Below, in pieces: positions 2,863-45,234 of a DNA stretch of 64,000 nt (its first letter is position 1; the number at the start of each line of letters is the position of its first letter). The notes under the pieces were generated by a model that did no database searches, was not told where the DNA came from, and saw nothing but the letters and a program-made list of their open reading frames with translations. The position numbers and the translations under genes were made by a program. The stretch is from Promethearchaeota archaeon (GTDB lineage: Archaea > Asgardarchaeota > Thorarchaeia > Thorarchaeales > Thorarchaeaceae): assembly GCA_014728035.1 (NCBI GenBank), contig WJMJ01000148.1, forward strand, positions 64,001 through 128,000, given 5' to 3'.

Positions 2863-3600
2863 ATGTACTTTCAATTCCTTATTGGACTTAAAGAACATGT
2901 AATAGCTGATAATGACCAGATACCAAATCTAGCAGACGTGCTTTCGTTCCTGCATACTATTGGTCCCAGATTAGAAATGGAACTTCAGGAAAAAGCGTTG
3001 ACGGACATTGCTGAAATCATGCAAATATCAGTTAGGATGGGACGTCTCGATATAGCTGGTTTAATCGGTGTTGTAGGTAGTGCGATAGTGAAACAAGAAG
3101 AAGTCTACTCAGTTCAGTATGTTAACCAAGTTTTTAATCTATTTATGAACTGCCTTAATATAGCTAAACCAATACTCCGTGAATACGAACAGAATCCAAA
3201 TCTTAATCTGAATATTTTGAGAAAGAAAGAACCTGAAAGACATTTTGCATGGGATGTGCTAGATGACATATGGCGAGCAATGTATGCGATACTCGTACAT
3301 AGTGAAAAAACAAGAGTGGTTCTTAAAGATAATCAAAAATTGCGTGATTTTCTTGGACTATATGTTGGATATCATGAAGGGTTGAAGTCAGTTACTGAAA
3401 ACTTAGACATATGTGGACACGATACGATAGGAGTTTATATGGGCTGATACTGAATGAATGTCTGGTTACCAGACACACATTCCCTGACCAGGACCGAGCC
3501 AGTTCCAGTACCGTTTCTGGACGAACAACGCTCGGGTGTCCAAGTTTGTCCAACTAATAATGAACGGTGTAAGCAAATTTATGATATACTACAGAATTAG
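2863..3600 (+). pseudogene. Paralog 3, C-terminus interrupted by the 186-bp element
   Basis: Reads MYFQFL...YHEG into the element (stop at 3447). Removing 186 bp gives YHEGCKQIYDILQN* (TAG ends 3600), matching paralog 1 YHEGCKKIHRVLKQ*. May still be expressed with an altered C-terminus. Confidence 0.8.
3380..3568 (+). mobile_element. 186-bp non-autonomous element, copy A (GGT core at both ends)
   Basis: GGT at 3380-3382 and 3566-3568; colinear and ungapped with the reverse complements of 15511-15699 and 45046-45234. Confidence 0.9.
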
Positions 3601-3723
3601 AACTTTTCACTAGTGTAAGTTGATTGCATTGATATGAACTTTTTATTGGTCAAGAATCATTGACTAGCTGGTCAAGGTTGATAGAATAATATTCTTTCTA
3701 CCCACTTACTAATGTGAATAAAA

Positions 3724-4188
3724 ATGACGGATGAAGTATTTGATGCAATATCGCACCCAATAAGAATTAGACTCTTAAAAGCACTTACTGGAAAACCTAT
3801 TGGATTTGCAGATTTAAAACGTCAATTAAAGATAGATAGTAGTGGCCAGCTTGATTTTCATCTTAAGAAGATGCAACCTCTAATCGATATCACAGATCAT
3901 GGACTTTACACTTTGAATAGTCAAGGCTATGCAGCGCTAACTGCAGTGGGAGTAGTCTCCAAACACGGTTGGCAAAGAAGAGCACTTATTCTGAATATAG
4001 TAGTATATATCATTCTGAATCTTTTCATGCTCAGTCTTGTTATTCAAGGGTTACATCTTATTTTGTACCTTATTGTTTTCTTAGCTCTAACAGCCTGGAT
4101 TCTGTTCTATGGCTATTGGAATCTTGTCAAAAGGAGAGTACAACTAAAGGATGAATCCACAATGAAATATAGAGTTAAGGAGGACTAA
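3724..4188 (+). CDS. ArsR-type winged-helix regulator with C-terminal TM helices
   Basis: FDAISHPIRIRLLKAL...FADLKRQL...LDFHLKK...YTL HTH followed by two hydrophobic helices. Confidence 0.8.
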   Translation: MTDEVFDAISHPIRIRLLKALTGKPIGFADLKRQLKIDSSGQLDFHLKKMQPLIDITDHGLYTLNSQGYAALTAVGVVSKHGWQRRALILNIVVYIILNLFMLSLVIQGLHLILYLIVFLALTAWILFYGYWNLVKRRVQLKDESTMKYRVKED

Positions 4189-4190
4189 CA

Positions 4191-4970
4191 ATATCAGCAA
4201 TAGAAATTAAGAATTTGACAAAGAGTTATGGAGAACTTGTAGCCGTTAGTGATTTATCCTTTGAAGTACATGAAGGAGAAATCTATGGATTACTAGGTCC
4301 CAACGGTGCAGGAAAAAGTACAACCCTGAAAGTCATGATGGGTTTACTGAAACCTGACAAAGGTACTACTAAGATTTTTGGAATAGACTCGCAAGAAGAT
4401 CCTGTCGGAGCAAAGAGTCTAGTTGGTTACGCACCTGAGGAAAAATCTCTTTATGAATCTCTCACAGCCAGAGAACTTTTCGAGTTTGTTGCTTCAGTTA
4501 GGAATATACCAGAGCAAAGATGCAACCAACGACTGGAAGAAATGGTCAAAGCACTCGATTTTCAAGAACATGTTGATAAAATGATAGTGACTTTGTCAGC
4601 AGGAAACAAGCAAAAAGCTCTATTAATCTCAATCATGCTCCATGCACCAAAACTACTGATTCTTGATGAACCATTCTCGGGACTTGATGTACGAACAGCT
4701 CGAATCATGAAGGAAGTGGTCAAGATTCATACACAAAACGGTGGTTCGGTCTTATTGAGTACACACATTATGGAAGTAGCTGAAGGTCTCTGTGATCGAA
4801 TTGGGATAATTGACGATGGGAAGCTTGTCGGACAAGGTACTATGACTGAATTGAGAACACAGGCCAAAGAAGAGAGCGCTACCCTTGAACAATTGTTTCT
4901 TAGATTGACTGGACAAGAGGATGAAGTCGAGATAGGAATAGATTCTCTCAAGGAGGCTCTACAGGAGTGA
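4191..4970 (+). CDS. ABC transporter ATP-binding protein
   Basis: Walker A GPNGAGKST, signature LSAGN, Walker B LILDE, H-loop STH. The conserved SAIEIKNLTK strand lies upstream of the TTG at 4215, so the start is probably ATA 4191. Confidence 0.93.
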   Translation: MSAIEIKNLTKSYGELVAVSDLSFEVHEGEIYGLLGPNGAGKSTTLKVMMGLLKPDKGTTKIFGIDSQEDPVGAKSLVGYAPEEKSLYESLTARELFEFVASVRNIPEQRCNQRLEEMVKALDFQEHVDKMIVTLSAGNKQKALLISIMLHAPKLLILDEPFSGLDVRTARIMKEVVKIHTQNGGSVLLSTHIMEVAEGLCDRIGIIDDGKLVGQGTMTELRTQAKEESATLEQLFLRLTGQEDEVEIGIDSLKEALQE

Positions 4971-6601
4971 AATTGCGAGAGCTATGGCGTCTTGCAGGTA
5001 CGGTCTCATTAGAGGCTCGTTTCAGGGGGTATCTAGACTCGAATCCAACCTATAGAACAAGAATCGAGGAGGAACCGGATAAAGTAATGGATAGTATCCG
5101 TGCTTCTAATCGGATTAATATTCTATTCTCTGTACTCATTATTGGAGTTTTATCGATACTCTCAATCACGACAATTATGGAATACATTGCATCAAATGCG
5201 TACTATGCGCTATCAATCTCTGTTGGTGTATACTTCAGTATATCCTTCGTTCTAATCTTCTTCATCTACTTGATGTTCACTACAGGTTTCTATTTGTCAG
5301 GTGTGACAGATTTCATCTCAACACTACCTTTTTCACGAAAGGATATTGAGAATCTGACATTTTTGGGATTTATCCGAGTTCTTATAGCTCCTGCATTATT
5401 GATATGCTCTCTATATCCGCTCCTTATGGGACTTGAGTTTGGTCTAGTAACTGGTCTTGTAACATTGATTTGTTGTATTTTAACAAGTATACTCTCAATA
5501 TCCGTTCTTCTATTGGTCTCAAAATGGTATCATGTTAAGACACATTCAGTTTCAGAATCGAAATTATCAACCGCGGTTCGAATAATGGCTTCTTTTGGTT
5601 TGATTCTAGGAATGGTAGGAGTTTATAGTGTAAACAGTTATCTACCACAAATTGTAACCTTTTTCATTGGATTAACTGAAGGGGGTTCTAGTCTTCTAGT
5701 CACATTACTTTCATTAGTTGTACCGTTCACATTTGGCTTTTTGATATCCACTATCACATTTGGAACCGTTGGTACACCGTTATTGATGACAATTGCGATT
5801 GCAGGTAGCTTCATTTATGGAATTTTGACAATCCATGCTTTTAGGGCCGGTATGACTGCTTTAAGGATGGCAGTTTCAGGAGGTCTCAAAACAGAAGCGA
5901 GCTCCATCGAGAGAAAACTAGTTATCCATCCACAAACCCCAATTCGAGGAATCATCCAAAAAGATATGCGACTTGCAAACCGAAATTTAGGATCAATTGT
6001 AATGGTGGTTATTCCAATTATGTTCCTTTTTACCATGCTTCCAGCATTATTTGCTATGATTGAAGATGTCATGCATAGTTTTGTCATCCTTCTATATACA
6101 GGACAACTAGTAGGTTTCTCTGGATTATCATATATCGGATTGATATCCATAGATGAACAGGGATCTTCAATTATTGAAGGACTACCAATCACTATCTATG
6201 ACAATATCCGAGCAAAAGCAAGTATCTATGCCATTCCTTATGCTATTATGGCTATTCTACTTTCCTTTTTGAGTCTGCTATTTGATGTAACGTCACCACT
6301 CATACGCTTTGTACCTCTCCTTATTGCACCATATGGATTGGTAGTAGGATTAACAGTTGGAGCAGTTCTATATAGATTTAGATCTAGGGAAGGAGGTGTT
6401 GGACTAGGATCAACTGATTTTCGTCTTACTGCTATCTCGGTTCTTACCGCGGGAGGAATTTCATCTATTCCCCTTGCTGGGTACGCTCTGACTCTTCTTG
6501 CAACTTGGAATCATCTCTTAGCAGTTCTTGTAGAAGGATTGGTTGTCATCCTAATGCTTGTACTCTATAACCGATATTCGCATAGATTAGTTAAAGCGTA
6601 A
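4967..6601 (+). CDS. ABC exporter permease (multi-TM)
   Basis: Many hydrophobic helices; overlaps the ATPase stop (GTGA coupling). Confidence 0.8.
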   Translation: MKLRELWRLAGTVSLEARFRGYLDSNPTYRTRIEEEPDKVMDSIRASNRINILFSVLIIGVLSILSITTIMEYIASNAYYALSISVGVYFSISFVLIFFIYLMFTTGFYLSGVTDFISTLPFSRKDIENLTFLGFIRVLIAPALLICSLYPLLMGLEFGLVTGLVTLICCILTSILSISVLLLVSKWYHVKTHSVSESKLSTAVRIMASFGLILGMVGVYSVNSYLPQIVTFFIGLTEGGSSLLVTLLSLVVPFTFGFLISTITFGTVGTPLLMTIAIAGSFIYGILTIHAFRAGMTALRMAVSGGLKTEASSIERKLVIHPQTPIRGIIQKDMRLANRNLGSIVMVVIPIMFLFTMLPALFAMIEDVMHSFVILLYTGQLVGFSGLSYIGLISIDEQGSSIIEGLPITIYDNIRAKASIYAIPYAIMAILLSFLSLLFDVTSPLIRFVPLLIAPYGLVVGLTVGAVLYRFRSREGGVGLGSTDFRLTAISVLTAGGISSIPLAGYALTLLATWNHLLAVLVEGLVVILMLVLYNRYSHRLVKA

Positions 6602-6611
6602 TTTTGGAATC

Positions 6612-6630
6612 ATGGGAGGTTCTCTCCCAT
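6612..6630 (+). terminator. Hairpin terminator candidate
   Basis: ATGGGAG-gttct-CTCCCAT followed by a T-rich tract, 11 nt after the permease stop. Confidence 0.5.
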
Positions 6631-6845
6631 TGTATTTCCTTCTTTCAATCGAGTATTTCTATTTTCAACTCTACTATTCATACTAGTAATTGCTAATAGT
6701 CTGAAACTTTTGATAACTGTTGAAAAATAATTTCACAGAAAAAAGTGATTCTTCATAGACTAGTTACTTTTTATCGGTATAAAGTGATTTGAAGATATCA
6801 TCGAAAGCTGCACTTTGAGATAATAAAACTAACTAGCCAACAACA

Positions 6846-15231: not shown

Positions 15232-15419
15232 ACTGTTCTATGCTCAATGGACGATATTTGATATCCGAACATTGTCCGTCCAGAAAGGTACTAGAGCTGG
15301 CTTGATTCTGATTGGAGATTCTGTGTCTTTTAGCCAAATCTTCATCCTGTTTGAGTCTCTATAGGATCCATTCATATCTTGTCCCAAAATATCCAGGTTT
15401 TCGACAGCTGTTTACAACT
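15232..15419 (-). mobile_element. 186-bp element, degenerate copy B (185-bp spacing, AGT core)
   Basis: Aligns along its length with the other copies (e.g. TTGTCCGTCCAGAAA, TTCATCCTGT); bounded by ACT at 15232-34 and 15417-19. Confidence 0.75.
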
Positions 15420-15510: not shown

Positions 15511-15699
15511 ACCGTTCATTTTTAGTTGGACAAACTTAGACACCCGAGCTTTGTTCGTCCAGAAACGGTACTGGAACTGGCTCGGTCCTGGTCAGGGAAT
15601 GTGTGTCTTTAGACCAAATCTCTATTCCAGATCACTCCATATAAACTCCTATCAGATCTTGTCCAACAATGTCCAAGTTTTCAGTAGCTGATTGCTACC
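15511..15699 (-). mobile_element. 186-bp element, copy C, inserted in a terminator hairpin
   Basis: ACC at 15511-13 and 15697-99; removal restores GAGACCCC-TTCG-GGGGTTTC-TATTCTTTTTTT on the minus strand. Confidence 0.9.
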
Positions 15700-15716: not shown

Positions 15717-18437
15717 CTATTTGTTTCGTTTTAGTTTACCAGTATAATACAGAATAAACACTACGATTGTTATCGCACCGATTCCACCAATAGCTAGCCC
15801 AATTACGAGCAGAGTCGAATCATCGGGTGGTGGTAAAACGGTCACTATGACAGAATCAGAAATACTGTTTCCTGAAGTATCATAGAGAGTTAGCTTGACA
15901 ATGTAAGTTCCTGGTTCAAAATCTGTTACATCAAATCGGATAGATTGACCGATCCAATCACCACTTGCTGACACAGTATCGTTTACTGTTATTGTATATC
16001 TAGACGGAAGTAGATCATCACCCTGCCATGTAATATTCATATCTTCAGTTCCTTGAATAAATTCTAAATTCTCTGGTGAGTTGATTGTCGGATTTGTGCT
16101 ATCCCCAACAATTACCCAAGTGGTTGCAGATATGCCATTTCCACTCTGGTCTTCAAGATACAAGGTCACATTGTAAATGCCAATAGGTCTATCAAATGGA
16201 ATGAGTGTTCCAATATTTCCCGCAAATACTCCATTCACGACTTGTGAACCATTAACGAATACGAGGAATAAACCAGGTGTATCCCATGTGTCATCAGGTG
16301 TCATATTGAAACTGACACTTGGGTTCAATGCACCATACTCTATGTACAGATTATCAAGGGATTCAATTGAAGGAGCTAAGGTATCTACAACTGTAACAAT
16401 TACAGTATCAAAATCATAGTTCATATCAGCATCCCAGACGACTACAGTGAAGTTATGTTCACCTAAGGACAGTCCATCAACAGAGTAATTGATCCAGTCA
16501 GAATAACTGAAGGTGTTGATGACAGTATCATCTAGATACATCTCTGCATCAACTGGATTATCCTCATTAACGCTCCAATTACAGAAATGCCCAGATGTTC
16601 CAACTTCATAACTAAAATCTAAAGGTTCGCTTAGAAGAGGGCTAATTGGATCCGTAACATCAATCCAAACTGTATCAGTGACTGTATGTCCATACGTATC
16701 GTTTATCCAAATAGTCAAGTTATGTGGACCGGGATAGAAATCTACAGACTCTGAGATATTTGTAGTTGAAGTCCATTCTCCACTAGCAATCTCAATCTCA
16801 TTATCATAGAGAAGGTAACTATCTGGATGCTCATCAGTAACGTTCCATTGATAATTGTGAGTGAATTGATATTGAACTGTTTCATTCGTGGGGCCTGCAA
16901 TTATAGTGGGTGGTTCATAGTCAACATCGTTCACTGTTACCAAGACGGTATCTGAAGCGGTATTGTTGTAGAGGTCTTTGAAGACCACTGTAAAGTTCTT
17001 TACTCCCGGTTCTATCGAGTAAGCTTCAATCTCGAAGATATATTCATTCATCATATGACCCGTATCATAGATAGCATAATCAACATATAGAGTATAATTC
17101 ACCGGGAATAATTCATCAATGACCCAATGAATAATTCGATCAGTTTCATCTTCATCCATGGAAAAGTCAGATGGCTGATTCGGAATAGGTGCAGCAACTT
17201 CCCCTGGAAAAGAAGATGCAAAATTATCAACTGCCCCAGAGGGTCCAGGAATTGCATAGGGTTCTACTACAGCATTACTCCATTGGTTTCCCAAAGCAGA
17301 GAAGTCCCATACTGAAATGTCTCCACCTGTTCCCCCATTGTCATATCCATTCTCTACATCATTGAACAGTAGATGATTGCTGTAGATTCTATTTGAACTT
17401 GATATTGGGCCGTTGTATATTCCATGATCATTAAGGTATACTTTGTTTGTGTGAATTAGAGTTGAATTGGTGTTATCCAGTGAAATTCCATATCCCTCAC
17501 AACTATGAACATAGTTCCAAGTCACTATACATACTTCACTTTCAAATACATGGATACCATTATCTTCCGAATTGAATACGTTGTTATAGGTAACATTGAC
17601 GTGTAATCCTTCGGTAACGTAAATCCCTTGCATGTACACGTTGGATACATTGTTACTCAAAATCAATGAATCAGTTGAAGTACTACATCGTATCCCATAA
17701 CCACCACTGCCTTCAATTCTATTATTAGAAATCGTACAATTTGGACTTTTGATGTAGATGCCTCCCGAAGAGGTGTCACGGATGATGTTATCTGTAATTG
17801 TAATATGATTAGAGGTTAACCCAGATTCGTAGATTCCGTAAAGGGCATTCTCAATATTGTTATCATGGAATATACAATTCGTGCTAGAAACAAGAAACAT
17901 ACCGTAAGATGAATCTGAAAATCGGTTTATGGATACATTGACCTCATTGCATGATTGCAGATACACACCGCTACTACTAGAGGTGATTTCATTATCCACT
18001 ATAACTGTTTTATTTGAATCAATCAATTCTACAGCCCATTGGGTAACTTCAAAAACAGATCCCTCTATATGACCATTGGTTGAATTCCGTACCTCCAGTC
18101 CATCTCCTAGAGTAACAAAATCACAATCAACAATTTTCCAGTATGCTGATTGATTCACGATCTTTATACAAGGACCTCCACTATGAACAAAGTCCAAGCC
18201 TTCAATGGTATAGGGAGCTCCTTCTGTTCCGGACCCTGTAAATCCATAATCAGTAAAATTGGCTTCGTATTCGATTAACCAATATGGCGTTATAGGGCCA
18301 GCAGATAATTCTACAATTTCCTTAGTAAGAATTCCATCCTGTTCTAAAGTAGAAATAAGGGGCGTCGAATTCCCACATATGGAAGTAACTAGAATAGTGG
18401 TGAACATAACCACTAGCACTTTCTCTAGGTGACGCAT
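15717..18437 (-). CDS. Surface protein: parallel beta-helix (NosD/pectin-lyase-like) repeats + Ig-like repeats + C-terminal TM anchor
   Basis: Signal peptide; GF.GSGT..PY..EG cap; (I..N.I....YGI) repeats; D..GN...D.V.V.V.D...P repeats; TM plus basic tail. Confidence 0.85.
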   Translation of the reverse strand: MRHLEKVLVVMFTTILVTSICGNSTPLISTLEQDGILTKEIVELSAGPITPYWLIEYEANFTDYGFTGSGTEGAPYTIEGLDFVHSGGPCIKIVNQSAYWKIVDCDFVTLGDGLEVRNSTNGHIEGSVFEVTQWAVELIDSNKTVIVDNEITSSSSGVYLQSCNEVNVSINRFSDSSYGMFLVSSTNCIFHDNNIENALYGIYESGLTSNHITITDNIIRDTSSGGIYIKSPNCTISNNRIEGSGGYGIRCSTSTDSLILSNNVSNVYMQGIYVTEGLHVNVTYNNVFNSEDNGIHVFESEVCIVTWNYVHSCEGYGISLDNTNSTLIHTNKVYLNDHGIYNGPISSSNRIYSNHLLFNDVENGYDNGGTGGDISVWDFSALGNQWSNAVVEPYAIPGPSGAVDNFASSFPGEVAAPIPNQPSDFSMDEDETDRIIHWVIDELFPVNYTLYVDYAIYDTGHMMNEYIFEIEAYSIEPGVKNFTVVFKDLYNNTASDTVLVTVNDVDYEPPTIIAGPTNETVQYQFTHNYQWNVTDEHPDSYLLYDNEIEIASGEWTSTTNISESVDFYPGPHNLTIWINDTYGHTVTDTVWIDVTDPISPLLSEPLDFSYEVGTSGHFCNWSVNEDNPVDAEMYLDDTVINTFSYSDWINYSVDGLSLGEHNFTVVVWDADMNYDFDTVIVTVVDTLAPSIESLDNLYIEYGALNPSVSFNMTPDDTWDTPGLFLVFVNGSQVVNGVFAGNIGTLIPFDRPIGIYNVTLYLEDQSGNGISATTWVIVGDSTNPTINSPENLEFIQGTEDMNITWQGDDLLPSRYTITVNDTVSASGDWIGQSIRFDVTDFEPGTYIVKLTLYDTSGNSISDSVIVTVLPPPDDSTLLVIGLAIGGIGAITIVVFILYYTGKLKRNK

Positions 18438-18630: not shown

Positions 18631-19902
18631 TTGACCATGTCAGAAAGCATTCTTGATGTGACAGATCAATATAGCACATGGCGAGACCTGTATCTTGTAG
18701 TTCAGGGCTTGTTTTATTTTGCACAAGGTATTGCTATGGGAGCAATATTCTACTTGCCATCATTGCTCCGTGATAGGGGTCTAAATGATCTGGAAAGCAT
18801 TATCATTCAAGCGGTAATCTGGTTACCTTGGTATCTCAAAGTGTTCTTTGGTATCCTCAGTGATAATGTCAAAATCAAGAACTATGGTCGGAGAAAACCG
18901 TATGTCATTGTTGCAGGATTTCTTGGTATCATAGGTTGGTTAACTCTTCCAACATATACAGTCTTTGGTCCAATGATGATTCTCTCAGGAATTCTTGCGA
19001 GTTTTGGTACCAGTATGAGTGATGGGATTTTGGATGCTCTTGCAGTAGATGTCACACCACCCAGAAGAAGAGGTGCTATGCAGGGAGTTTCATGGGGTAG
19101 TCGTGGCCTTGGTCTCGGAATAGCTGCGGTCATTGTGGGTTTACTTACAGCAGCTGGTGAATGGTTTATTGCATTCGCAGTACCTGGAGTAATCCTTGGA
19201 CTAGCTTGTCTATTTGTCATTCTGATTAAAGAAGTTCCATTGCCCGAAGATTTCAAACGAGTTCCGTTAGGTGTGCTTACTGGTGTATTCAAACAGAAGA
19301 ATGTACAGCTCTGCACACTGTTTCAATTATTCGCTGGCGCAGGTATCTCTATTCTAGCAATACTACAAACATATCTAGAAACAGGACTTGGATTTGACCT
19401 TGTGACTGTTGGAATAGTTTTTCTGATATTTTCTATTGGAATGTTCATTGGCGCAATAATATTTGGATTGCTTGGAGATAAACTCTCAGTCTTGCAAACA
19501 CTTCCAGTGACAACTATTCTCTACACCGTCATTATACTCTCCGTTCTAATCATCGATACCAGTGATTGGGCAATAGCTGCGATATTCTTCTTCTTAGTGG
19601 GATTAGCAAATGGAGGCTATGAGGCTACACAAATGCGAATTAGTATGGATAACTCACCAGCTATTGTTGGAGGTACCATGTATAATTTCTACAACAGTAT
19701 CTCGAATCTTGGCCAGATTGCTATTGGAGCAATTTTGATTGCATATCTTGGTGAAGTTGTCTTCAGTGGCAATTTACAACTAGGGTGGCAATTAGCTTGG
19801 GTGTTCTTGCTTCTCTCACTACCTGTTGCTTACAAACTGGTGAAAGAACATCAAGTTGAGGGAGAAGGAATTACAGAGGAAGCAGTACCTTATCATGAAT
19901 GA
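18631..19902 (+). CDS. MFS transporter (AmpG/BT1-like)
   Basis: YFAQG, LPWYLK, SD...GRRKPY, D...DALAVD; about 12 TM. Confidence 0.88.
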   Translation: MTMSESILDVTDQYSTWRDLYLVVQGLFYFAQGIAMGAIFYLPSLLRDRGLNDLESIIIQAVIWLPWYLKVFFGILSDNVKIKNYGRRKPYVIVAGFLGIIGWLTLPTYTVFGPMMILSGILASFGTSMSDGILDALAVDVTPPRRRGAMQGVSWGSRGLGLGIAAVIVGLLTAAGEWFIAFAVPGVILGLACLFVILIKEVPLPEDFKRVPLGVLTGVFKQKNVQLCTLFQLFAGAGISILAILQTYLETGLGFDLVTVGIVFLIFSIGMFIGAIIFGLLGDKLSVLQTLPVTTILYTVIILSVLIIDTSDWAIAAIFFFLVGLANGGYEATQMRISMDNSPAIVGGTMYNFYNSISNLGQIAIGAILIAYLGEVVFSGNLQLGWQLAWVFLLLSLPVAYKLVKEHQVEGEGITEEAVPYHE

Positions 19903-20162: not shown

Positions 20163-21422
20163 ATGCCACCAAAAACTCCTGAAGAATCAATTCCTTACGC
20201 ATCTTGGAAAAATCGATATATAATAATCCAAAGTATGTTCTATCTAGCTCAAGGAGTTGCTATGGGGGCTTTATTCTATATACCATCACTGTTACGAAAT
20301 CGTGGATTAAATGATTTTGAGAGTATCATCATACAATCGGTTATAGGATTGCCATGGATTCTAAAGATTATATTTGGCATTATGAGTGATAATGTTTCTA
20401 TTGGCAACTATGGGCGTCGTAAGCCGTATATTATCCTCGCAGGATTTGTGGGAATTATCGGTTTTGCTACACTACCGATTCATCCTGTATTTGGACCTCT
20501 AATGGTTGCTTCTGGATTTCTTGCTAGCATCGGTACAAGTATGAGTGATGGTGTATTGGATGCACTAGCTGTTGATGTAACACCTCCTGAAAAACGCGGA
20601 ACTATGCAGGGGACTGCTTGGGGGAGCAGAGCAATTGGCTTGGGAATATCATCTTTATTTGTTGGAATATTCAGTGCTTTAAATGACTGGTTTATAGCGT
20701 TTGCAATCCCGGGTTCTGTTTTTGGATTAGCCTGTTTTATGGTGATTCTTATCAAGGAACCAATTTCACCAGATCTAACAGGGATATCTAGAAATCTATT
20801 GAAAAGCGTTTTCAAGAAGAAGAAAATACAAATCTGCACACTATTCCAAATAGTTGCAGGTGCAGGTATATCAATCAGTTTGATTATTCAAACATACTTG
20901 GAATCCGGTCTTGGATACGATTTAGACATTGTTGGATTCGTTCTCTTCATATTCTTGACTGGTATGTTCTTTGGCTCAATGTTTTTTGGATATTTAGGAG
21001 ATAAATTATCTAGTGAAATAACCCTGCCAACATCAACGTTAATGAATATAGCTCTTATCATAGTGGTACTATTCATCAATACAAGCGATATCCTGTTTGT
21101 GTCCGTGTTCTTCTTTCTATTTGGTATTTCAAGTGGAGCATACCAGACTAGTCAATTACGAATCAGCATGGATTACTCTCCATCTATATTAGGAGGTACA
21201 ATGTTCAATTTCTACAACAGCATGGCAAATGTGGGGCAATTAGTTATAGGTTCAGTACTTATTGCATATGTTGGTGAAGTCATCTTTCAAGGTAATCTCC
21301 AATTTGGGTGGCAAGTTGCTTCCGTGTTTCTATTCCTGTCAATACTCATCTCAATGAAATTGATTAGAAATTATCAAGTCGAAGGATCTACAGAACCAGC
21401 AACAGAAATGCCAGAAGAATAA
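20163..21422 (+). CDS. MFS transporter, tandem paralog of 18631..19902
   Basis: Same motifs throughout (GRRKPY, MSDGVLDALAVDVTPP, GGTMFNFYNS). Confidence 0.88.
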   Translation: MPPKTPEESIPYASWKNRYIIIQSMFYLAQGVAMGALFYIPSLLRNRGLNDFESIIIQSVIGLPWILKIIFGIMSDNVSIGNYGRRKPYIILAGFVGIIGFATLPIHPVFGPLMVASGFLASIGTSMSDGVLDALAVDVTPPEKRGTMQGTAWGSRAIGLGISSLFVGIFSALNDWFIAFAIPGSVFGLACFMVILIKEPISPDLTGISRNLLKSVFKKKKIQICTLFQIVAGAGISISLIIQTYLESGLGYDLDIVGFVLFIFLTGMFFGSMFFGYLGDKLSSEITLPTSTLMNIALIIVVLFINTSDILFVSVFFFLFGISSGAYQTSQLRISMDYSPSILGGTMFNFYNSMANVGQLVIGSVLIAYVGEVIFQGNLQFGWQVASVFLFLSILISMKLIRNYQVEGSTEPATEMPEE

Positions 21423-22465: not shown

Positions 22466-24994
22466 CTATTTCTTCACTTTCAGGAAGTAGATTAAGACAA
22501 CAACAAGAGTTATTCCAGCGCCAGAAATGGCTAGAATCATAATAACCGACATATCAGGTGCTGGTGGGGGTGTTCCAGTTGTAGTGGTTGTTGAACCTTG
22601 GGCATTTACGTTTACAGTACTGGAGCTTGTTACACTGTTTCCTGATGTATCATAGAGGGTTAGAGTAATTTCGTAGACACCTTCTCTAAGATTTGCATCA
22701 TCCAGCAGATAACTAATGTTCGAACCATCCCAAGTACCGCTCGCTAGAGTTGTAGTGTTATCCAGCATTATTACATATGAATGAGGCAATAGGTCACTGC
22801 AAGTCCAGTTCATCCAATGTCCAGTAGATCCTTCAGTAATTGAGAAGTCACTAATTGAGGAGCAAGTTGGGTCTGTAGTATCGCCAACGGTTACAATTGT
22901 AGTTGCTGAAACAGTATTGCCACTATAGTCCTCAAGATAGAATGTTACATTATAAACTCCCAAATTCTTGTTGAAATATAGACCATAGTCTGCAGTTTCA
23001 GTAAATGAGCCACTATCTTCTTCAGTTCCATTTACTAGGACAGTATAACTACCGGGTGTATCCCAATTACCATCAGCAGTAAGGTTGAATTTAACGTGCG
23101 GATTTAAAGTGCCATACTCTATGAATTGAGTATTTTTTGCGTCAATGGTAGGAGCTGTAGAATCTATCACGTTGATAAGAACCGTATCAACTGCAACATT
23201 ACCAAAAGTGTCATTTGCTACAATTGTGCAGTTGTAATCACCAAGCACTGAGATATCCAGCTCAGTGTTGAAACTCGTAGAATAGCTCTCCTGTATCTGC
23301 ATAATATCATTCAGATAATATGCAATGACATCAGGATAATCTTCAGTAATTGTCCAAACCAGAGGGTATAGACTTGTGGATGCCTCTACTTCCGTATCAT
23401 TGGGGCCAGAGATATCAGGAGATACATAGTCTACTTCATTTACCGTTACCTCAACTTCATCAATTTGTTCATTCATGAAAGCATCCCAGACCACAAGTTG
23501 AAGAGTATAGAGACCATGACTTAGATTCTCTAATTGATAGGTAAAGGGAAGAGAAGGAACCCAATAGCCAGATTTTACGGATTCTCCATCGAGATAGATG
23601 GTGTAATTCCAAGGATGCAGATCAAAACCATTCCATTCGACAGTCGCGCTCTGGTCCTCATCAAAGGCAAAGTCTGCGGAACCTGAGATTATCGGGGATG
23701 TGGAATCTACAAGTTCAGCAGGATAACTATCAGTAGCACCACTACCTCCAGGAATAGAATAGGGGGATGAATGTGACACATTGTAATAATTCCCCATTCC
23801 AGAGCCATCATCCCATGAAGATGTACCACTACTCGCATCATAAGCATCATTTGTAGTGTGATTTGAGAGGTGGTTTCCATAGAAGATGTTTGAATCACTA
23901 TTCAAGAAATTCCGGATTCCAATAGGTCCATGATGGATACGATTGTTGAGCACTCTACAATTCTCACCATACATCATTATACCATTTTGGGTAAAAGTGT
24001 GAACTACATTATCAGTCACATTACAGCCATCTAGATAATTCAAAGACATCCCGTCGTTGGAATCAAAAATCTCGTTAAAGCTGATTTCTGAAGATATCAG
24101 TCCATAGGAATAAATTGCATCCATATCTATATCAAAAAGTGTGTTATTAGTAATATGCGCTTCGGATAAGATATCACAATAGATACCGTCATAAAAATTA
24201 CATATCGTATTTTGAGAGATGTGATAATTGAATCCATTTGATGTGTCTATATAAATCCCATATTGACAGTGTCCATCAAGTGTATTTCCTGTGATATTAT
24301 AGTTTTCAGAATTATCTATTTTCATACCATACGAGGTGGCATTGATAATTATATTATCACTAATGGTGACAAATGAGCTAGTACTCCCGTCATATATTGC
24401 GGTGCTAGCTCCAATGATTGTATTATTATGGATAGTGCAATTCAGAGCATTAAACAATGATATCCCAGTACCAGGATCTGAGATAGTATTCTTAGTGATT
24501 GTCACAAAGTAAGAATGCAATATACTTATCCCAGAACTTTGAGTGTCAATTTGACATCCTTGGATTAAAGTACCGTTTGCATAGTCACAATAGATTTTAG
24601 ATGAATCGAATGTACAATTTTGAATAATACCATTAGTAGATTTCTCAATTCTCACACCATAATATGGAACACTTCCATGAAATTCACACGAATTAATCTC
24701 AAAGAAAGCTGACTGATTGTACACATTAATGATATGACCTTCTGTGTGAGTCAGGTTTACACCCTCAAGTGTATAGGGGGATTCTTGAGAACCAGATCCT
24801 GTGAACCCGAATTGAGTGAAGTTGTTCTCATGTGTGATGTTATAGAGTGTATCAGATGCTGAAACAATTGGTTGGTTCGATTCTATTTGGGGTATTATTT
24901 CTGTTGAGTGATCCTGATATACTTGATTAGAACAACTTGAGAGTAATAATAGACCCAGAATAAAACCACCTATAATGTTCTTACTAGCCTGCAA
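22466..24994 (-). CDS. Beta-helix + Ig-like repeat surface protein (paralog)
   Basis: Same architecture as 15717..18437; Thr/Pro linker and C-terminal TM. Confidence 0.85.
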   Translation of the reverse strand: MQASKNIIGGFILGLLLLSSCSNQVYQDHSTEIIPQIESNQPIVSASDTLYNITHENNFTQFGFTGSGSQESPYTLEGVNLTHTEGHIINVYNQSAFFEINSCEFHGSVPYYGVRIEKSTNGIIQNCTFDSSKIYCDYANGTLIQGCQIDTQSSGISILHSYFVTITKNTISDPGTGISLFNALNCTIHNNTIIGASTAIYDGSTSSFVTISDNIIINATSYGMKIDNSENYNITGNTLDGHCQYGIYIDTSNGFNYHISQNTICNFYDGIYCDILSEAHITNNTLFDIDMDAIYSYGLISSEISFNEIFDSNDGMSLNYLDGCNVTDNVVHTFTQNGIMMYGENCRVLNNRIHHGPIGIRNFLNSDSNIFYGNHLSNHTTNDAYDASSGTSSWDDGSGMGNYYNVSHSSPYSIPGGSGATDSYPAELVDSTSPIISGSADFAFDEDQSATVEWNGFDLHPWNYTIYLDGESVKSGYWVPSLPFTYQLENLSHGLYTLQLVVWDAFMNEQIDEVEVTVNEVDYVSPDISGPNDTEVEASTSLYPLVWTITEDYPDVIAYYLNDIMQIQESYSTSFNTELDISVLGDYNCTIVANDTFGNVAVDTVLINVIDSTAPTIDAKNTQFIEYGTLNPHVKFNLTADGNWDTPGSYTVLVNGTEEDSGSFTETADYGLYFNKNLGVYNVTFYLEDYSGNTVSATTIVTVGDTTDPTCSSISDFSITEGSTGHWMNWTCSDLLPHSYVIMLDNTTTLASGTWDGSNISYLLDDANLREGVYEITLTLYDTSGNSVTSSSTVNVNAQGSTTTTTGTPPPAPDMSVIMILAISGAGITLVVVLIYFLKVKK

Positions 24995-25132: not shown

Positions 25133-27709
25133 CTATTTCTTTCTCAGGAAATAAATGATAATCACTACGAATACAACACCGATTCCAACCCCTGCAACAA
25201 TAACCAAAATCATTGCATCAGCTGGAGGAGGAACAGAGGGACTAGTAGTTGTTGTACTAGTGGTAGTTGTGGTTGAGGTCGAAGATGAACCAGGATAGAC
25301 CGTAACAATTGTTGTACGAACGACACTGTTACCTGATGTGTCATAGAGTGTCAAGGTAATGTTCCAAACTCCATCTCGAAGGCCAGCATTATCCAACAAG
25401 TAGTTGATATCAGTTCCGTCCCAAGATCCACTCGCTAGAATTGTACTTCCATTAAGAGTGATTGAATACGAGTCGGGCAAGAAGTCAGAACAAGTCCAAT
25501 TCATCCATATATCTGAATCACCCTCAGTGAAGAAGAAATTCGATACATAGGAACATGTTGGTGCGGTAGTATCTTCCAGAGTCACCCAACCCATACATGT
25601 GTAACCATTACCTGAAGTATCCTCATAGACATAGGTGATGTTGTAAACTCCGAGATCCGTACCATCCAGGTGGTATTCTAGAGAAGTATTACTTGTGAGA
25701 ACTGTGGTGTTTGTGAGAGTTCCATTCTCATATATCCAGAGAGTTCCAGGTGCGTCCCACGTATGGAAGTCGTTGACCTCGAAAGGAACACCATCTCCAG
25801 AACCATACTCAATATCATACAGACCCCACACAGCATACGTTGGAGGTATTGTATCGATGACTGAGATAATTACAGTGTGTACAGCAGTATTTCCAAAGGT
25901 GTCATTTGCTTTAATTGTACAATTGTAATCACCTAATACAGAAATATCAAGTTCTGCACTGAATTCAGTAGTATAACTTACACTGGTCTGAATTACATCA
26001 TTGAGATAATAAGTTACAGTATCTGGGTTGTCATCTGTGATATTCCAGTTGAGCTCATAGAGATCAAGGGATGGCTCAACATCAGCATCACTGTATCCTT
26101 CAATATCTGGTACTACATTATCTCCTTCGTTAACTGTGATCTGGACTTGATCGATTTGTTCATTCATATATGCATCCCAGATGACAAGTTGTGCTGTATG
26201 AACTCCCAATGATAAACCTTCAAAGGTATAAGAGATATCGAGTGAAGGAATCCAATATCCAGAATCAATATCTGAACCATCTAATGACAGAGTATAATTC
26301 CATGGATGGATATCGAATATATTCCAATCAATAGTACGTGACTCATAATCGTACATCTCTACATCAGGCTCATTTACTATTCCAGGACCAGAAGAATCTA
26401 GCAATACATTTGGAGCTCCATCATAATTTCCAGAACCGCCAGGAATATAGTAATTAGCATCATGAGATTCATTGTAGAAGTTACCTGTCAGAGTGGGCGA
26501 ATACCACCAGGTATTGTTAGTATTTCCTGCATTATCGTATGTGTCATTTGTGGTATGATTACTGAAGTGATTATTGTAGAGAAGGTTGTGATGACAACCT
26601 GTAGAAAGAACCATTCCAATTTGGCCATGATGTATCTTATTGTCAGTAATTATGCACGAATTTGAGTTAATGAAAAAGAATCCATAATCATAGAATGTGT
26701 TCAAGATGTTATTTCGAACAAGTACATCCTCACCTGAAACAATATCGATTCCTCGGTAGGTTGTATTCGCTATCTCGTTACCTTCAACAGTAGAGGACCA
26801 AATATAATCCAGATAGATTGCATGATCACCAATGTTTCGAAGTTTGTTGTTACGAATTAAGCTGCCACCATTAGAATTCTGATAAATACCATAGTCAGCA
26901 ATATCAACTAAGGTATTGTTTTCAATTCTTTGATAATAATTACTGTTTGAAATATCATATATGCCATAATTTGATGCATTGGTTATCAGATTGTTAGTTA
27001 TATTTACATAACTGGAGTAAGCGTAGATTCCTGCTCCTGTCCCATAGAGATTTCGAATAGAGTTATCATGATAGACAGAATCGTCAGATAACCCATTATC
27101 ACGTATTCCATAATATGCTATGTCAATCTCGTTTCTCTGAATTGTTGTATTGGGTGCCGAAGAGTGAAATATGGCATTTGTCATATCATGCATAATATTA
27201 TCAGATACTTCAATGAAATGCGAATCGTGTATGTATGTGCCATATGAACATCCGTCCATTGTACAATGTGATATCAGCGTGTTGTTTGCTCTGTAAACAT
27301 ATACTCCACGTATTGTTGTAAAAGTACAGGCCTCGATAATTCCATTGCTTGAGTTATCAATACGGATACCATAACGTGACATAGTTGATGCGTTGAAATC
27401 ACAAGATTTTATCTTCCAGTATGCGGTCTGATCCGAAATTTCAATTATATCCCCAAGAGAATATGTGGTTGAATTTCCTTCTAGTAAGTAGGGGTCACCT
27501 TGCGTACCGCTCCCCGAAAAGCCAAATTGCGTGAAATTATCTTCATGAGTGATTTCATAAAGTGTTACTCCAGGGTCCGCTGAAACAGCATAGGTTTCTA
27601 GACCCGTTTCTTCATTTTGGAATTCTATTGGTATCCCTTGATTGATTCCGACCGGAATCAGGAATAGCGCAAATAGAAATCCTGCTAGTAGTAATTTCTT
27701 GGCGTGCAT
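25133..27709 (-). CDS. Beta-helix + Ig-like repeat surface protein (paralog)
   Basis: ITHEDNFTQFGFSGSGT cap; shares HPWNYT, LDISVLGDYNCTI.ANDTFGN with 22466..24994; poly-Thr linker; TM. Confidence 0.85.
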   Translation of the reverse strand: MHAKKLLLAGFLFALFLIPVGINQGIPIEFQNEETGLETYAVSADPGVTLYEITHEDNFTQFGFSGSGTQGDPYLLEGNSTTYSLGDIIEISDQTAYWKIKSCDFNASTMSRYGIRIDNSSNGIIEACTFTTIRGVYVYRANNTLISHCTMDGCSYGTYIHDSHFIEVSDNIMHDMTNAIFHSSAPNTTIQRNEIDIAYYGIRDNGLSDDSVYHDNSIRNLYGTGAGIYAYSSYVNITNNLITNASNYGIYDISNSNYYQRIENNTLVDIADYGIYQNSNGGSLIRNNKLRNIGDHAIYLDYIWSSTVEGNEIANTTYRGIDIVSGEDVLVRNNILNTFYDYGFFFINSNSCIITDNKIHHGQIGMVLSTGCHHNLLYNNHFSNHTTNDTYDNAGNTNNTWWYSPTLTGNFYNESHDANYYIPGGSGNYDGAPNVLLDSSGPGIVNEPDVEMYDYESRTIDWNIFDIHPWNYTLSLDGSDIDSGYWIPSLDISYTFEGLSLGVHTAQLVIWDAYMNEQIDQVQITVNEGDNVVPDIEGYSDADVEPSLDLYELNWNITDDNPDTVTYYLNDVIQTSVSYTTEFSAELDISVLGDYNCTIKANDTFGNTAVHTVIISVIDTIPPTYAVWGLYDIEYGSGDGVPFEVNDFHTWDAPGTLWIYENGTLTNTTVLTSNTSLEYHLDGTDLGVYNITYVYEDTSGNGYTCMGWVTLEDTTAPTCSYVSNFFFTEGDSDIWMNWTCSDFLPDSYSITLNGSTILASGSWDGTDINYLLDNAGLRDGVWNITLTLYDTSGNSVVRTTIVTVYPGSSSTSTTTTTSTTTTSPSVPPPADAMILVIVAGVGIGVVFVVIIIYFLRKK

Positions 27710-40520: not shown

Positions 40521-40587
40521 TTGCACTATGTAATATTTGCATAATGCAAATAAAAACATTGCGTAACGCAACAATTACTAAATGCAA
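40521..40587. promoter_or_regulatory. Palindromic operator array (probable MarR sites)
   Basis: TATTTGCAT-A-ATGCAAATA (40534-52), TTGCGT-A-ACGCAA (40559-71) and two weaker copies between the divergent genes. Confidence 0.6.
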
Positions 40588-41049: not shown

Positions 41050-41153
41050 ATGCAACATACACAACAAGGTAAATAAAAGGAAAGAAAAAAAGAAGTTATA
41101 CTGAGAGAAGTGGTAATCACCGCCTGTGTGGTGAGTTCTACGGGCCGGTAGAA

Positions 41154-41932: not shown

Positions 41933-41933
41933 T

Positions 41934-42010
41934 ATGTAGACCTCTACTTATGTTGAACTCTACATAAGTCGAAGCTCAAAGATATATAAAGGTTATGTAG
42001 TGTTCTACAT
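41934..42010. promoter_or_regulatory. PadR-type operators ATGT-N8-ACAT
   Basis: Sites at 41950-65 and 41995-42010, plus an imperfect one at 41934-49, around a TATA box near 41982. Confidence 0.6.
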
Positions 42011-42108
42011 ATCTCCCGTTATGCATAATGATACATATCGATATGAATAAGTTGAGCATATCGGTTATAAGGATATTCACCCATTGTTTTTACATAGAAT
42101 TGGAGATA

Positions 42109-43905
42109 ATGACGATGGCCAAGATATTAAGAATCGATATGTCAAGCCTTGAACACAAATGGGAAGACATACCATCAAAATACGAGACCTACGCTGGTAG
42201 AGCACTAACTTCAGCGATAGTACATGACGAAGTAGAACCAACCTGTCATCCTCTTCGAGCTGGCAACAAACTTGTAGTCTCTCCGGGATTATTGGCTGGC
42301 ACATTAGCACCATCCTCTGGCAGACTCAGTTTCGGAGCTAAATCGCCTTTGACAGGTGGAATCAAAGAAGCTAATGCAGGTGGTCTAACTGGAACCAGAC
42401 TAGCAAGGATTGGAGTTCGAGGAATAGTACTTGAGGGAATTCCTGATACCAAAGATGATTGGTACAGCATAGTAGTTGGAAAGGATAAATGTGAGATCAA
42501 AAAGACTAACGAATATGCTGGAATTGGAGCATATGAACTAATCGGAAAGATATGGAAAGAGTACGATTCCAAGCCTGGAATAGTAGGTTGTGGAATAACA
42601 GGTCAAAAATTATTGATGGGTTCAGGAATTTTTGGAAACAATATTGAGAACAGCGATCCTGGAAGATATGCAGGACGTGGTGGACTCGGAGCTGTACTAG
42701 GTTCTAAGAGAGTTGTAGCTATTATTTCTGATGACACTGACGGAGAACGACCTGAGCCAAAAGACGAAGAGAAGTTTTCTGAAGGTAGAAAAGCAATGGT
42801 CAAGGCACTAAATGAACATCCTGTCACTGGAAAATTGAAGGATGATGAAGGTAATGCCTTTGGTGCATTAAAGAACTACGGAACCAATGTATTGATGAAT
42901 ATCCTGAATGAAGGTGGAGGTCTCCCAGCATTTGGTTTTAGTAGAGGTAGATCTGATGTCGCTGCAAAAATTTCTGGTGAAGCAGTTCACGAACTTGTTG
43001 ATAAGGTCAAAGAAAAGTTCGGAGACAAAACACCAGCAACATATGGACATCCTTGTCATCCAGGATGTATAATGGCTTGTTCAAATGTTGTACCATATGA
43101 AGATACAGGAAAGTTGCAGGTTAGCCCATTAGAATACGAATCTGCATGGGCTCTTGGTACAAACTTGGGTATCGATTCATTACATGATGTAGCTGAACTT
43201 AACAGGCTCTGTAATGACCTCGGTCTTGATACCATAGAAACTGGCAATGCTATTGCAATGCTAATGGAAGGAGGCGTTATCGAATATGGTGATGGAAAAG
43301 GCGCAATCAAAGCACTTGAGAAAGCTTACGGGGACGATACTCTTCTTGGTAAATTAGTAAGCTCAGGAGCTCAGACTGTCGGTCAGACTCTCGGAGTCAC
43401 AAGAATTCCAGTAGTCAAAGGACAAGCACTTCCAGCTTATGATCCTAGACCTATCAGAGGAATTGGAGTAACCTACGCTACCTCAACAATGGGTGCGGAT
43501 CATACTGCAGGTTACACCATTGCTGCTGAAATTCTCGGAATTAAAGGTGATGTTTCTGATCCGCGAGGCCTCAAGAAAGCAGATCTGTCCAGAACATTCC
43601 AAGCGACTACTGCATATATTGATTCTAGTGGCTACTGCCTGTTTATCGCATTCGCAATTCTAGATGACGATGATGGATTCCAAGGCATGGTAGACACGGT
43701 AAATGCATACTTGGGTAAAGATATCGACGTGACCCAATATGGTCTTGAAACACTCAAGAAGGAACGATCATTCAACAAAGGTGCAGGGTTCAGCAAAGAG
43801 GATGACCGACTACCAGAATTCTTCAAGAAAGAACCATTGCCACCTCATAATGTCACTTTCGATGTGAGCGAAGAAGAGCTAGACAAAGTATACGAAGGAA
43901 TGTAA
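42109..43905 (+). CDS. aor: Tungsten aldehyde:ferredoxin oxidoreductase family enzyme
   Basis: KSPLTGGIKE.NAGG, AGRGGLGAV.GSK, CHPGCIMAC, EYE, CNDLGLDTIE, YDPR, GADH, DDRLP. Confidence 0.95.
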   Translation: MTMAKILRIDMSSLEHKWEDIPSKYETYAGRALTSAIVHDEVEPTCHPLRAGNKLVVSPGLLAGTLAPSSGRLSFGAKSPLTGGIKEANAGGLTGTRLARIGVRGIVLEGIPDTKDDWYSIVVGKDKCEIKKTNEYAGIGAYELIGKIWKEYDSKPGIVGCGITGQKLLMGSGIFGNNIENSDPGRYAGRGGLGAVLGSKRVVAIISDDTDGERPEPKDEEKFSEGRKAMVKALNEHPVTGKLKDDEGNAFGALKNYGTNVLMNILNEGGGLPAFGFSRGRSDVAAKISGEAVHELVDKVKEKFGDKTPATYGHPCHPGCIMACSNVVPYEDTGKLQVSPLEYESAWALGTNLGIDSLHDVAELNRLCNDLGLDTIETGNAIAMLMEGGVIEYGDGKGAIKALEKAYGDDTLLGKLVSSGAQTVGQTLGVTRIPVVKGQALPAYDPRPIRGIGVTYATSTMGADHTAGYTIAAEILGIKGDVSDPRGLKKADLSRTFQATTAYIDSSGYCLFIAFAILDDDDGFQGMVDTVNAYLGKDIDVTQYGLETLKKERSFNKGAGFSKEDDRLPEFFKKEPLPPHNVTFDVSEEELDKVYEGM

Positions 43906-43914
43906 TGTTCCAGT

Positions 43915-43937
43915 TGGAGTGGGATTTTCCCATTCCA
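43915..43937 (+). terminator. Hairpin + T-tract terminator
   Basis: TGGAGTGGGA-ttt-TCCCATTCCA then TCTTCTTTTTG. Confidence 0.55.
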
Positions 43938-43981
43938 TCTTCTTTTTGTTATAACAATCCAATATAATGATGTGATAAAAA

Positions 43982-44290
43982 ATGCTCAACATCTATCTTT
44001 ACGGTTGTCTGAGAAAATTAGTGGATAATAGTAGAGTCACTGAAGACACTAAGATGGAGCTAGAACACATTGAAGGAGAAACCTTCATTCAACTTATTCA
44101 TAGAATCGGTCTTGAAAAGAAAGATTTGGGTGACTGTTTCAGAAATGGCAATTTAGTCAAGGACGATGAAGTTTTGGATGATGGAGACCGCATTGGACTA
44201 TTTCCATTTAATATGGTACTACTTTGTGGTGGACAACATTTGAAGGGGCATGGATACACTCAATCAGAAAAAGACGTGGACTATTATTGA
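43982..44290 (+). CDS. MoaD/ThiS-like beta-grasp protein with C-terminal extension
   Basis: IYLYGCLR...F.NG...LDDGDRIGLFP; internal CGG followed by 18 extra residues. Confidence 0.75.
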   Translation: MLNIYLYGCLRKLVDNSRVTEDTKMELEHIEGETFIQLIHRIGLEKKDLGDCFRNGNLVKDDEVLDDGDRIGLFPFNMVLLCGGQHLKGHGYTQSEKDVDYY

Positions 44291-44293
44291 GGA

Positions 44294-44542
44294 GTGAAAA
44301 TGAAAGTTCAAGTTAAATTGTATGCAACCCTTCGGGACTATGCTCCTAGAAAATGTGGTATTGGAGAGGCATTCCTCTTTGAGGTTAAAGATAATACAGT
44401 TCGAGCAATATTGGAAAAATTATCAATTCCAGAAGAGTATGCAAGAATAGTAATGGTAAACGGTAGCAGGATATCAGATTATTCTTACAAACTTGATGAA
44501 AATGATCTTGTAGTTATTTTTCCGCCAATAGGTGGAGGATAA
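44294..44542 (+). CDS. MoaD/SAMP ubiquitin-like sulfur carrier
   Basis: VKLYATLR...VNG...LDEND.V.IFPPIGGG C-terminus. Confidence 0.92.
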   Translation: MKMKVQVKLYATLRDYAPRKCGIGEAFLFEVKDNTVRAILEKLSIPEEYARIVMVNGSRISDYSYKLDENDLVVIFPPIGGG

Positions 44543-45045
44543 TTGAAAATTACTACATATGATTCATTTGCATAATCCTTTTCGCCATACTTTCTGATTT
44601 CTGTATGGGATTATGATGTTTAGTCTTCTCTACGTTGTACCGAAACAAATTACATTAGTTAATTTGAAAATTGTTTCTTTAAACCTCATAATCCCTTTAT
44701 CAGGAATTGGCTTCATGTTGTTAATCCTAATGGTGATTCTCATTCTAATGGATAGAACAACTAGAGTGACTATAACCCATCCATATATCCTGCTGAATCA
44801 GTCTAAAGAAATTGAGGATATTAAACATAATAGCGAGAAGAAGAGTATTTGAATCATGAATACACCTCAGCTAATCAAGGTGACCGACCGAATCATTTCT
44901 TCTTCTTTTGAAACCTCTTTTAGCACTCGACTCATATATTCGAATAAATCGTCTATGGACTCTCCCCACATTGATAATTTAATACCTAAACTATCACCTA
45001 CAATATCTTCAACCATCTTATCTAAGGTTTCACTATCATCAGAAT

Positions 45046-45234
45046 ACCGTTCATTTTTAGTTGGGCAAACTTGGACACCCGAGCGTTGTCCGTCCAGAAA
45101 CGGTACTGGAACTGGCTCGGTCCTTTTCAGGGAATGTGTGTCTGGTGACCAGACCTTCATCCTGTATCATCCCATATAACCTCCTATCAGTTCCTGTCCT
45201 ACAATGTCCAAGTTTCCAGTAGCTGACTGCAACC
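45046..45234 (-). mobile_element. 186-bp element, copy D
   Basis: ACC at 45046-48 and 45232-34; ungapped alignment to copies A and C. Confidence 0.9.

Follow-up and report, generated by a model that had tools for sequence, protein, structure and literature searches.

A gene-less 189-bp mobile element of probable IS607 origin in a Thorarchaeota genome, with a possible guide RNA module for a large TnpB

A 64,000-nt stretch of a Promethearchaeota (Thorarchaeaceae) genome (contig WJMJ01000148.1, positions 64,001 to 128,000; below, the window) contains a repeat of 189 bp in several copies, and the question it raises is what kind of element this is and how a sequence that encodes nothing could have moved. 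The window is part of contig C121 of an assembly of 4.33 Mb in 173 contigs (handle G000). An initial annotation placed four copies, A to D, at the coordinates collected in Table 1, and alignment, repeat finding and a scan with an nhmmer profile locate all four exactly there; the window total is exactly four, and the profile scan gave no fifth copy in it. Stop codons are present in all six frames of every copy in the window, which leaves no open reading frame (ORF), and no transposase was found in the window with the queries used, as the annotation had stated. The best explanation overall, to which we give a probability of roughly 0.85, is that the element (hereafter, the mini) is a gene-less internal-deletion derivative, or 'mini-IS', of an insertion sequence (IS) of the IS607 family resident in this lineage of Thorarchaeota.

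Relatives that carry genes are found in the same assembly. A search for the Pfam TnpB domain gave one match directly upstream of a BLAST match to the last 65 nt of the mini, on contig C25, where an element of 2604 bp starts with GGT and has a TTGGACA-AAG-TTGGACA pair in its left end. Identity to the mini is 65% for the left end, as against a shuffled maximum of 58%, and 79% for the right end, which consists of a hairpin, then TGTCCAA-GTT-TGTCCAA and a terminal ...CAACGGT. The first ORF of this element (123 aa) encodes a MerR-type helix-turn-helix (HTH) and the serine-recombinase motif AVYARVSSHRQ, and is a truncated TnpA cut after ~100 residues. The second is an intact TnpB of 713 aa with a Cas12f1-like TNB domain, whose stop codon lies 30 nt before the terminus and in which GADRG, FENL and HADVN can be read by eye as the D-E-D motifs of RuvC. 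Contig C16, which ends within a tnpB fragment, has a similar left end followed by an intact TnpA of 204 aa, with an N-terminal MerR HTH and then a Resolvase domain. It is this domain order that distinguishes IS607 transposases (PMC6188088). The initial annotation had proposed a non-autonomous IS607-like mini-element and suggested looking for a longer element with the same ends around tnpA and tnpB; the C25 element is such a one, and the C25 and C16 relatives, with the same or similar ends, a MerR-HTH serine recombinase and TnpB, bear the proposal out. Between the intact tnpA and the tnpB fragment of C16 there is, on the opposite strand, an ORF of 482 aa without a Pfam match (L036 1905-3353 (-) = G000:C16:30026-31474), which may be carried as cargo or have inserted into a larger IS607-type element.

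The mini itself, when translated, contains a remnant of the last ~20 tnpB codons: ...SSTVSGRT..CPSL.N and stop, as compared with ...SSAVAGRT..CPRLSN and stop in TnpB. The ends in common with tnpA/tnpB elements, together with this codon remnant, argue that the mini was formed by internal deletion from an IS607-family element, of which it has kept ~60 bp on the left and ~70 bp on the right. Every testable feature that defines IS607 is present, and those of DDE-type miniature inverted-repeat transposable elements (MITEs), of palindrome-associated transposable elements (PATEs) of the IS200/IS605 type and of IS110 are absent. An IS110/IS1111-like element, moved to specific sites by a DEDD transposase with a bridge-like RNA, had been named in the annotation as an alternative, which is not supported. 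It would agree with the lack of terminal inverted repeats and the short conserved target, and the assembly has a single DEDD_Tnp_IS110 gene, on contig C150. However, this contig has no similarity to the repeat and no repeat match, and both ends of the mini match IS607-type elements carrying tnpA(S) and tnpB; contradicted by full-length relatives with the same ends, an IS110/IS1111 identity has next to no probability. The IS110-family gene lies at G000:C150:922-1401 (-), as a 408-aa open frame on a 2.4-kb contig, and is unrelated to the minis.

The large TnpB family is multi-copy in 17/30 other genomes of the same taxonomic family. In 14 full-length elements from 11 related genomes (13 of these elements are outside G000) the 3' end of tnpB overlaps the right end as in C25, and the 14 right ends share the hairpin, two TGTCCAA motifs and ...(G/C)AACGGT. 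The C25 protein (L037 2575-4716 (-) on G000:C25) has 713 aa and its relatives 700-790 aa; 713 aa is almost twice the usual length of a TnpB. Its match to Pfam or to solved TnpB/Cas12f structures is limited to the last ~60 residues, with the N-terminal ~600 outside, and a search of solved structures recovered TnpB and Cas12f entries weakly and for the C-terminal zinc-ribbon/TNB part only.

The ends of the mini are organized in the IS607 manner. Its termini are unrelated in sequence and form no terminal inverted repeats; instead, a TTGGACA-N3-TTGGACA pair is present at positions 24-40 and its inverse at 158-174. Both the lack of terminal inverted repeats and the inverted tandem motifs, noticed earlier in the window, are seen in the alignment, and the motifs are conserved in relatives, the left pair recurring at the left of the full-length element on C25 and the right pair being kept in 14 full-length right ends. 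In copy D the arms AAACTTGGACA / TGTCCAAGTTT form a perfect 11-nt sub-terminal inverted repeat, the left arm being 45205-45215. Phased sub-terminal TnpA-binding motifs are known in IS607, and on the strength of the footprinting done in that family (PMC6188088) the TTGGACA pairs are presumed to be TnpA-binding sites.

The site of insertion is defined as well. The base at –1 before GGT is G in 28/28 left flanks (genomic G content 0.20), so the GGG ending of left flanks that had been pointed out in the window holds genome-wide; –2 is A or T in 23/28 and –3 is A in 17/28, and right flanks (n = 31) show no base preference. The target is (A/T)G-GGT. This profile of 28 left and 31 right flanks equals the published behavior of IS607, with GG at the termini and in the target, (G)GG preferred and no duplication (PMC6188088). 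A classical DDE-type MITE was rejected, as the element is without terminal inverted repeats and target-site duplication. Insertion beside a fixed short motif without duplication could also be expected of an IS200/IS605-type PATE, a single-stranded DNA moved by a Y1 (HUH) transposase, for which the hairpins would be recognition structures and GGGT the left cleavage motif; the hairpin near the right end and a Y1 transposase fragment on contig C98 point the same way. However, that sole Y1 match is a piece of 36 residues at the edge of a contig, a corresponding sub-terminal hairpin is absent from the left end, and the phased direct-repeat motifs are typical of IS607. Full-length relatives that share these ends code for a serine recombinase and not for Y1, which contradicts the PATE identity, and we regard it as highly improbable.

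To support the view that the mini is a mobile element, we found precise empty-site alleles, which the initial annotation had put forward as a check. Two independent tests indicate that insertion is base-exact and without true target duplication. The first is provided by copy A: excising 3380-3565 (186 bp) from ORF 2806..3447 swaps the element-encoded tail for ...YHEGCKQIYDILQN and stop, which agrees with the end of the paralog 345..905 (...YHEGCKKIHRVLKQ and stop) in length and pattern, and also with that of the paralog 1820..2836 (...HHEGCMWIYRAL...). The native site is GAA-GGG-TGT, so host sequence accounts for the GG, the T and the G at –1 alike. The three tandem paralogs (345-905, 1820-2836 and 2806-3447, the third truncated by copy A) have no Pfam match and share the motifs ...NIAKPIL..YNPN... 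and ...YHEGC.... For the second test, 13 minis of the sister species (G001) with 1.5-kb flanks were searched against the G000 genome, and for at least 6 of the 13 both flanks are contiguous in G000 with no element between them. In the cleanest pair the filled site on G001:C4, ...TTCGTG|GGT-(190 nt including both GGT)-GGT|AACTACG..., corresponds to an empty site with a single GGT on G000:C45, ...TTTGTA[GGT]AATTACG..., and in G001 the ortholog of a 253-aa gene of G000:C45 is cut short by the insertion. It should be noted that empty sites have one GGT as against GGT...GGT in filled ones, and that the exchanged pair within the shared bases is ambiguous from sequence.

At one orthologous site both species have a mini, and the junction (GCATATTGG|GGT) is the same on G001:C7 and at the start of G000:C36, which shows that the mini family predates the species split. 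The coordinates of this site are G000:C36:1-140 and, in L102 (G001:C7:110952-114140), an element at 1501-1689. The G000:C36 copy belongs to the young C-type burst described below, and it may be the old master copy of the burst or have been homogenised by gene conversion. Flank BLAST gave no paralogous empty sites within the genome, and DNA and protein searches of related genomes gave no orthologs of the flanks of copies C and D, whose neighbouring genes (NosD/beta-helix, TPR) are accessory; an exact look-up of two flanking proteins in public assemblies gave no match.

Empty sites also bear on another view, in which the copies are non-mobile structured RNA genes or 3' untranslated region (UTR) regulatory elements spread by duplication. 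A conserved fold with covariation would suit this view, as would the fact that three of the window copies lie just after co-oriented genes. It is contradicted by the precise empty sites and, further, by sharp boundaries with unrelated flanks, by homology to transposon ends, by the absence of an Rfam match and by an orientation bias that is not significant genome-wide (14 co-oriented versus 8 opposed), so that we consider it very unlikely indeed.

A search across the whole assembly agrees with the large genome-wide family that had been predicted from the window. BLAST and nhmmer give 50-52 loci, the nhmmer profile 52 matches. About 20 loci are essentially complete, 14 left halves and 14 right halves lie exactly at contig ends, and the remainder are a few fragments and the right end of one full-length element. 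The halves span positions 1 to ~140 and ~50 to 189 and thus have ~90 nt of the same sequence in common; we can explain this overlap by short elements breaking an assembly with k~141, and not by termini of a long element. The family in the assembly comes to ~34 copies, which cause 28 contig breaks. Boundaries are sharp, and the flanks of different copies are unrelated. Two subfamilies are young, D-type (five complete copies, 94-98% identity) and C-type (three complete copies, 97-98%), and identity falls to 62-77% for older copies. To judge by their sequences, these two young subfamilies and the halves at contig ends reflect recent activity and amplification.

Some minis lie next to each other. 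The right flank (G000:C99:79968-79997) of a D-type copy at 79998-80138 is a decayed right end (CCGAGTTTGTTCAGCTAGTAATGAACAGT), which suggests insertion of a new mini into an older one or beside it. Minis have an internal CGGGTG that fits the target motif, and copies C and B in the window are similarly in tandem, 91 bp apart. Outside G000, the sister species (G001) and one further genus (G007, G022) have mini-like matches over the full length (positions 1-189), and in other related genomes the match is limited to the right-end module. Counted by genome, matches are present in 16/24 within the same taxonomic family and 0/16 outside.

The right end deserves separate discussion, and its fold was compared in minis of G000, of the sister species and of the second genus, as well as between minis and full-length right ends. 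Judging from these comparisons, the last ~75 nt of the mini keep the stem-loop and pseudoknot of the scaffold of the TnpB right-end element RNA (reRNA). The inner hairpin has 98.5% of cells paired, with U-A (18), C-G (4) or G-C (1) as the closing pair. The outer stem is CCGAG/CTCGG in G000 and CAGAG/CTCTG in minis of G001, and that of full-length elements, TCAAG/CTTGA, includes the tnpB stop codon; in copy D the segment 45079..45120 corresponds both to the 3' stem-loop of the reRNA scaffold and to the remnant of the last tnpB codons (...SSTVSGRT). The pseudoknot between the loop (A/G)CCGUU and the terminal AACGGU has 92.8% of cells paired, with a double change in one element (GUCGUU/AACGAC). 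These features agree with the IS607 reRNA of ISXfa1, in which the pseudoknot made by the loop of stem-loop 3 is required for activity, and a fixed nucleotide after the right end belongs to the IS607 scaffold (PMC10711439). No Rfam family was assigned to the element at gathering or E-value thresholds. Since the mini lineages share a mini-specific interior without coding constraint, the compensations argue for selection on the fold in minis. The nearly invariant TTATAT at positions 56-61 could, as a speculation, be an archaeal TATA box with a start near position 85. It appears about an even chance that minis serve as trans guides for TnpB; IS200/IS605 PATEs are reported to do an analogous thing (PMC10055086).

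Several points weigh against our interpretation. Intact tnpA and intact tnpB do not occur together in any element of the assembly, and the ends of C25 and C16 reach only 59-79% identity to those of the mini, which implies a parent that has yet to be sampled. For positions ~60-124 of the mini, nothing equivalent could be detected in the full-length elements searched: 15/15 tnpB loci with a match align only from about position 120-136 onward, no parent element covering positions ~60-124 was found, and the longer DNA matches in relatives are other minis. As for the RNA, full-length elements have a further reRNA stem upstream, overlapping their HADxNAA codons, which the mini lacks; this speaks against a complete guide scaffold of ~150 nt, and most pseudoknot pairs are invariant and therefore carry little weight either way.

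These last points leave room for a simpler reading, namely that the same IS607-derived mini is a purely TnpA-dependent parasite, in which hairpin and pseudoknot are leftovers of the tnpB 3' end without an RNA function. We consider this a serious possibility, only a little below even. It is in accord with the missing scaffold stem and with homology to full-length right ends that is limited to the last ~70 nt; moreover, much of both the pseudoknot and the hairpin is invariant, and since the recombination core and the TnpA motifs overlap with the module or border on it, constraint at the DNA level could explain the conservation. On the other hand, two species have mini lineages that share the non-coding, mini-specific interior and yet differ by the compensations in outer stem and hairpin, and such a fold has no known use for a double-strand recombinase.

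Returning to the IS607-derived mini in general, its movement would follow the IS607 paradigm (PMC6188088; PMC10690162). TnpA, the MerR-HTH serine recombinase of which one intact copy is present on C16, would be supplied in trans, and its dimers would bind the motif pairs and synapse the ends. It would then excise a double-stranded circle with the junction ...ATGAAC-GG-TTGCAG..., whose GG core would recombine with GG in a target. For the following steps we see about equal chances for and against. The right ~75-105 nt would be transcribed across the boundary, possibly from TTATAT at 56-61, and the transcript would be a guide RNA, its stem-loop and pseudoknot loading the resident 713-aa TnpB of C25 in trans. 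The flank next to it would act as guide, with the ...(A/T)GGGT of the left flank as the transposon-associated motif (TAM); vacated sites would be cut again and the copy restored by homologous recombination. The fullest version of this scheme, in which the minis are natural 'guide-only' satellites, with ~34 of them under RNA-level selection and their flanks guiding one large TnpB to police ~34 loci in trans, is a tentative one, and we think it more probably wrong than right.

Coordinates of the copies and of their parts are given in Table 1. Copies A, C and D are 189 nt each and, in agreement with what the initial annotation had reported, align without gaps and are bounded by GGT 186 bp apart; their mutual identity is 87-90%. 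Copies B and C have the same orientation, B lying downstream of C. Copy C lies 17 nt past the stop codon of the gene 15717..18437, and copy D 34 nt past that of the TPR gene 45269..46768. The window also contains two pairs of direct repeats (19585-19822 / 21108-21345 and 23378-23500 / 26069-26191, 71-72% identity), which are unrelated to the mobile element and sit in the neighbouring paralogous ORFs 18631..19902 / 20163..21422 and 22466..24994 / 25133..27709.

Table 1. Copies of the mini in the window and sequence features of copies D and A (sense positions are those of the element)
Feature	Coordinates	Strand	Remarks
Copy A	3380..3568	+	189 nt, GGT to GGT; in 3' end of ORF 2806..3447
Copy B	15232..15419	-	Old decayed copy, ~70% identity; AGT at both ends
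Copy C	15511..15699	-	Young C-type subfamily; 97% identity to the other two complete C-type copies
Copy D	45046..45234	-	Young D-type subfamily; 94-98% identity among five copies
Left-end motif pair, copy D	45195..45215	-	TTGGACA-N3-TAGGACA, 10-bp period, sense 24-40; presumed TnpA binding sites
Right-end motif pair, copy D	45061..45077	-	TGTCCAA-N3-TGCCCAA, sense 158-174, inverted relative to left pair
Outer stem and hairpin, copy D	45079..45120	-	CCGAGC/GCTCGG around TCCAG-loop-CTGGA, sense 115-156
Terminal AACGGT, copy D	45046..45051	-	GG(T) core and 3' strand of predicted pseudoknot with loop ACCGTT (45099-45104)
Hairpin, copy A	3504..3521	+	Sense 125-142; pseudoknot partner and core 3563-3568

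For annotation, the family explains 28 contig breaks as well as several truncated genes (among them ORF 2806..3447 and the sister-species ortholog of the 253-aa G000:C45 gene), and neither minis nor truncated ORFs should be taken for new RNA genes or proteins. If its IS607 origin is accepted, Asgard archaea have a natural, protein-less and apparently still active IS607 derivative whose boundaries are known to the base and whose target is defined as G-GGT. Should the guide module work in trans, natural pairs of guide and target would be available from ~34 minis, together with a predicted TAM, for an archaeal TnpB of unusual size. As guide-only satellites they would be the IS607/Asgard counterpart of PATEs that bear omega-RNA, and might have been a step on the way to RNA-guided functions exapted by the host in the lineage closest to eukaryotes. 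Asgard archaea are that lineage, and the Fanzors of eukaryotes arose from IS607 TnpBs.

Among known systems, the IS607 family (IS607 of Helicobacter pylori, IS1535, ISC1926, ISXfa1) is the closest in its features. It is alike in having no terminal inverted repeats, no target duplication, GG at termini and target with (G)GG preferred, and short repeated motifs, in helical phase, ~20-40 bp inside each end; the full-length relatives of the mini encode a MerR-HTH serine recombinase TnpA and then TnpB, and the right-end stem-loop whose loop pairs with the terminus can be compared with the reRNA pseudoknot of ISXfa1 (PMC6188088, PMC10711439). The mini differs in its 189 bp without genes, in a ~65-nt interior without a counterpart in the sampled full-length elements, in the invariant T after the GG core on both sides, in the unusual length of the associated TnpB (~710-740 aa) and in its host, an Asgard archaeon. 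A gene-less unit of left and right ends is also known as the engineered CboIStron 'mini-IS' of a Clostridium botulinum IS607 element, which has no tnpA/tnpB, is excised as a circle by TnpA(S) in trans and is usable as a guide source for TnpB in trans (PMC10690162). That construct is artificial, has ~800 bp and contains a group I intron, whereas the element described here is natural, 189 bp long, multi-copy and intron-less. PATEs are protein-less minimal transposons of the IS200/IS605 type that often keep an omega-RNA and rely on TnpA and TnpB encoded elsewhere (PMC10055086), but they are single-stranded DNA moved by a Y1 HUH transposase via sub-terminal hairpins, and the mini belongs with a serine-recombinase, double-strand family. 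Classical MITEs are likewise short, non-coding and multi-copy, are mobilised in trans as the mini would be, and differ in the terminal inverted repeats and target-site duplications that result from DDE transposases. In the literature searched, the engineered mini-IS and the IS200/IS605 PATEs are the ones described, and no published description of natural IS607 minis was found. Taken together, the mini is a known kind of mobile element, and the mildly novel point is its possible role as a guide-only satellite of a large archaeal TnpB.

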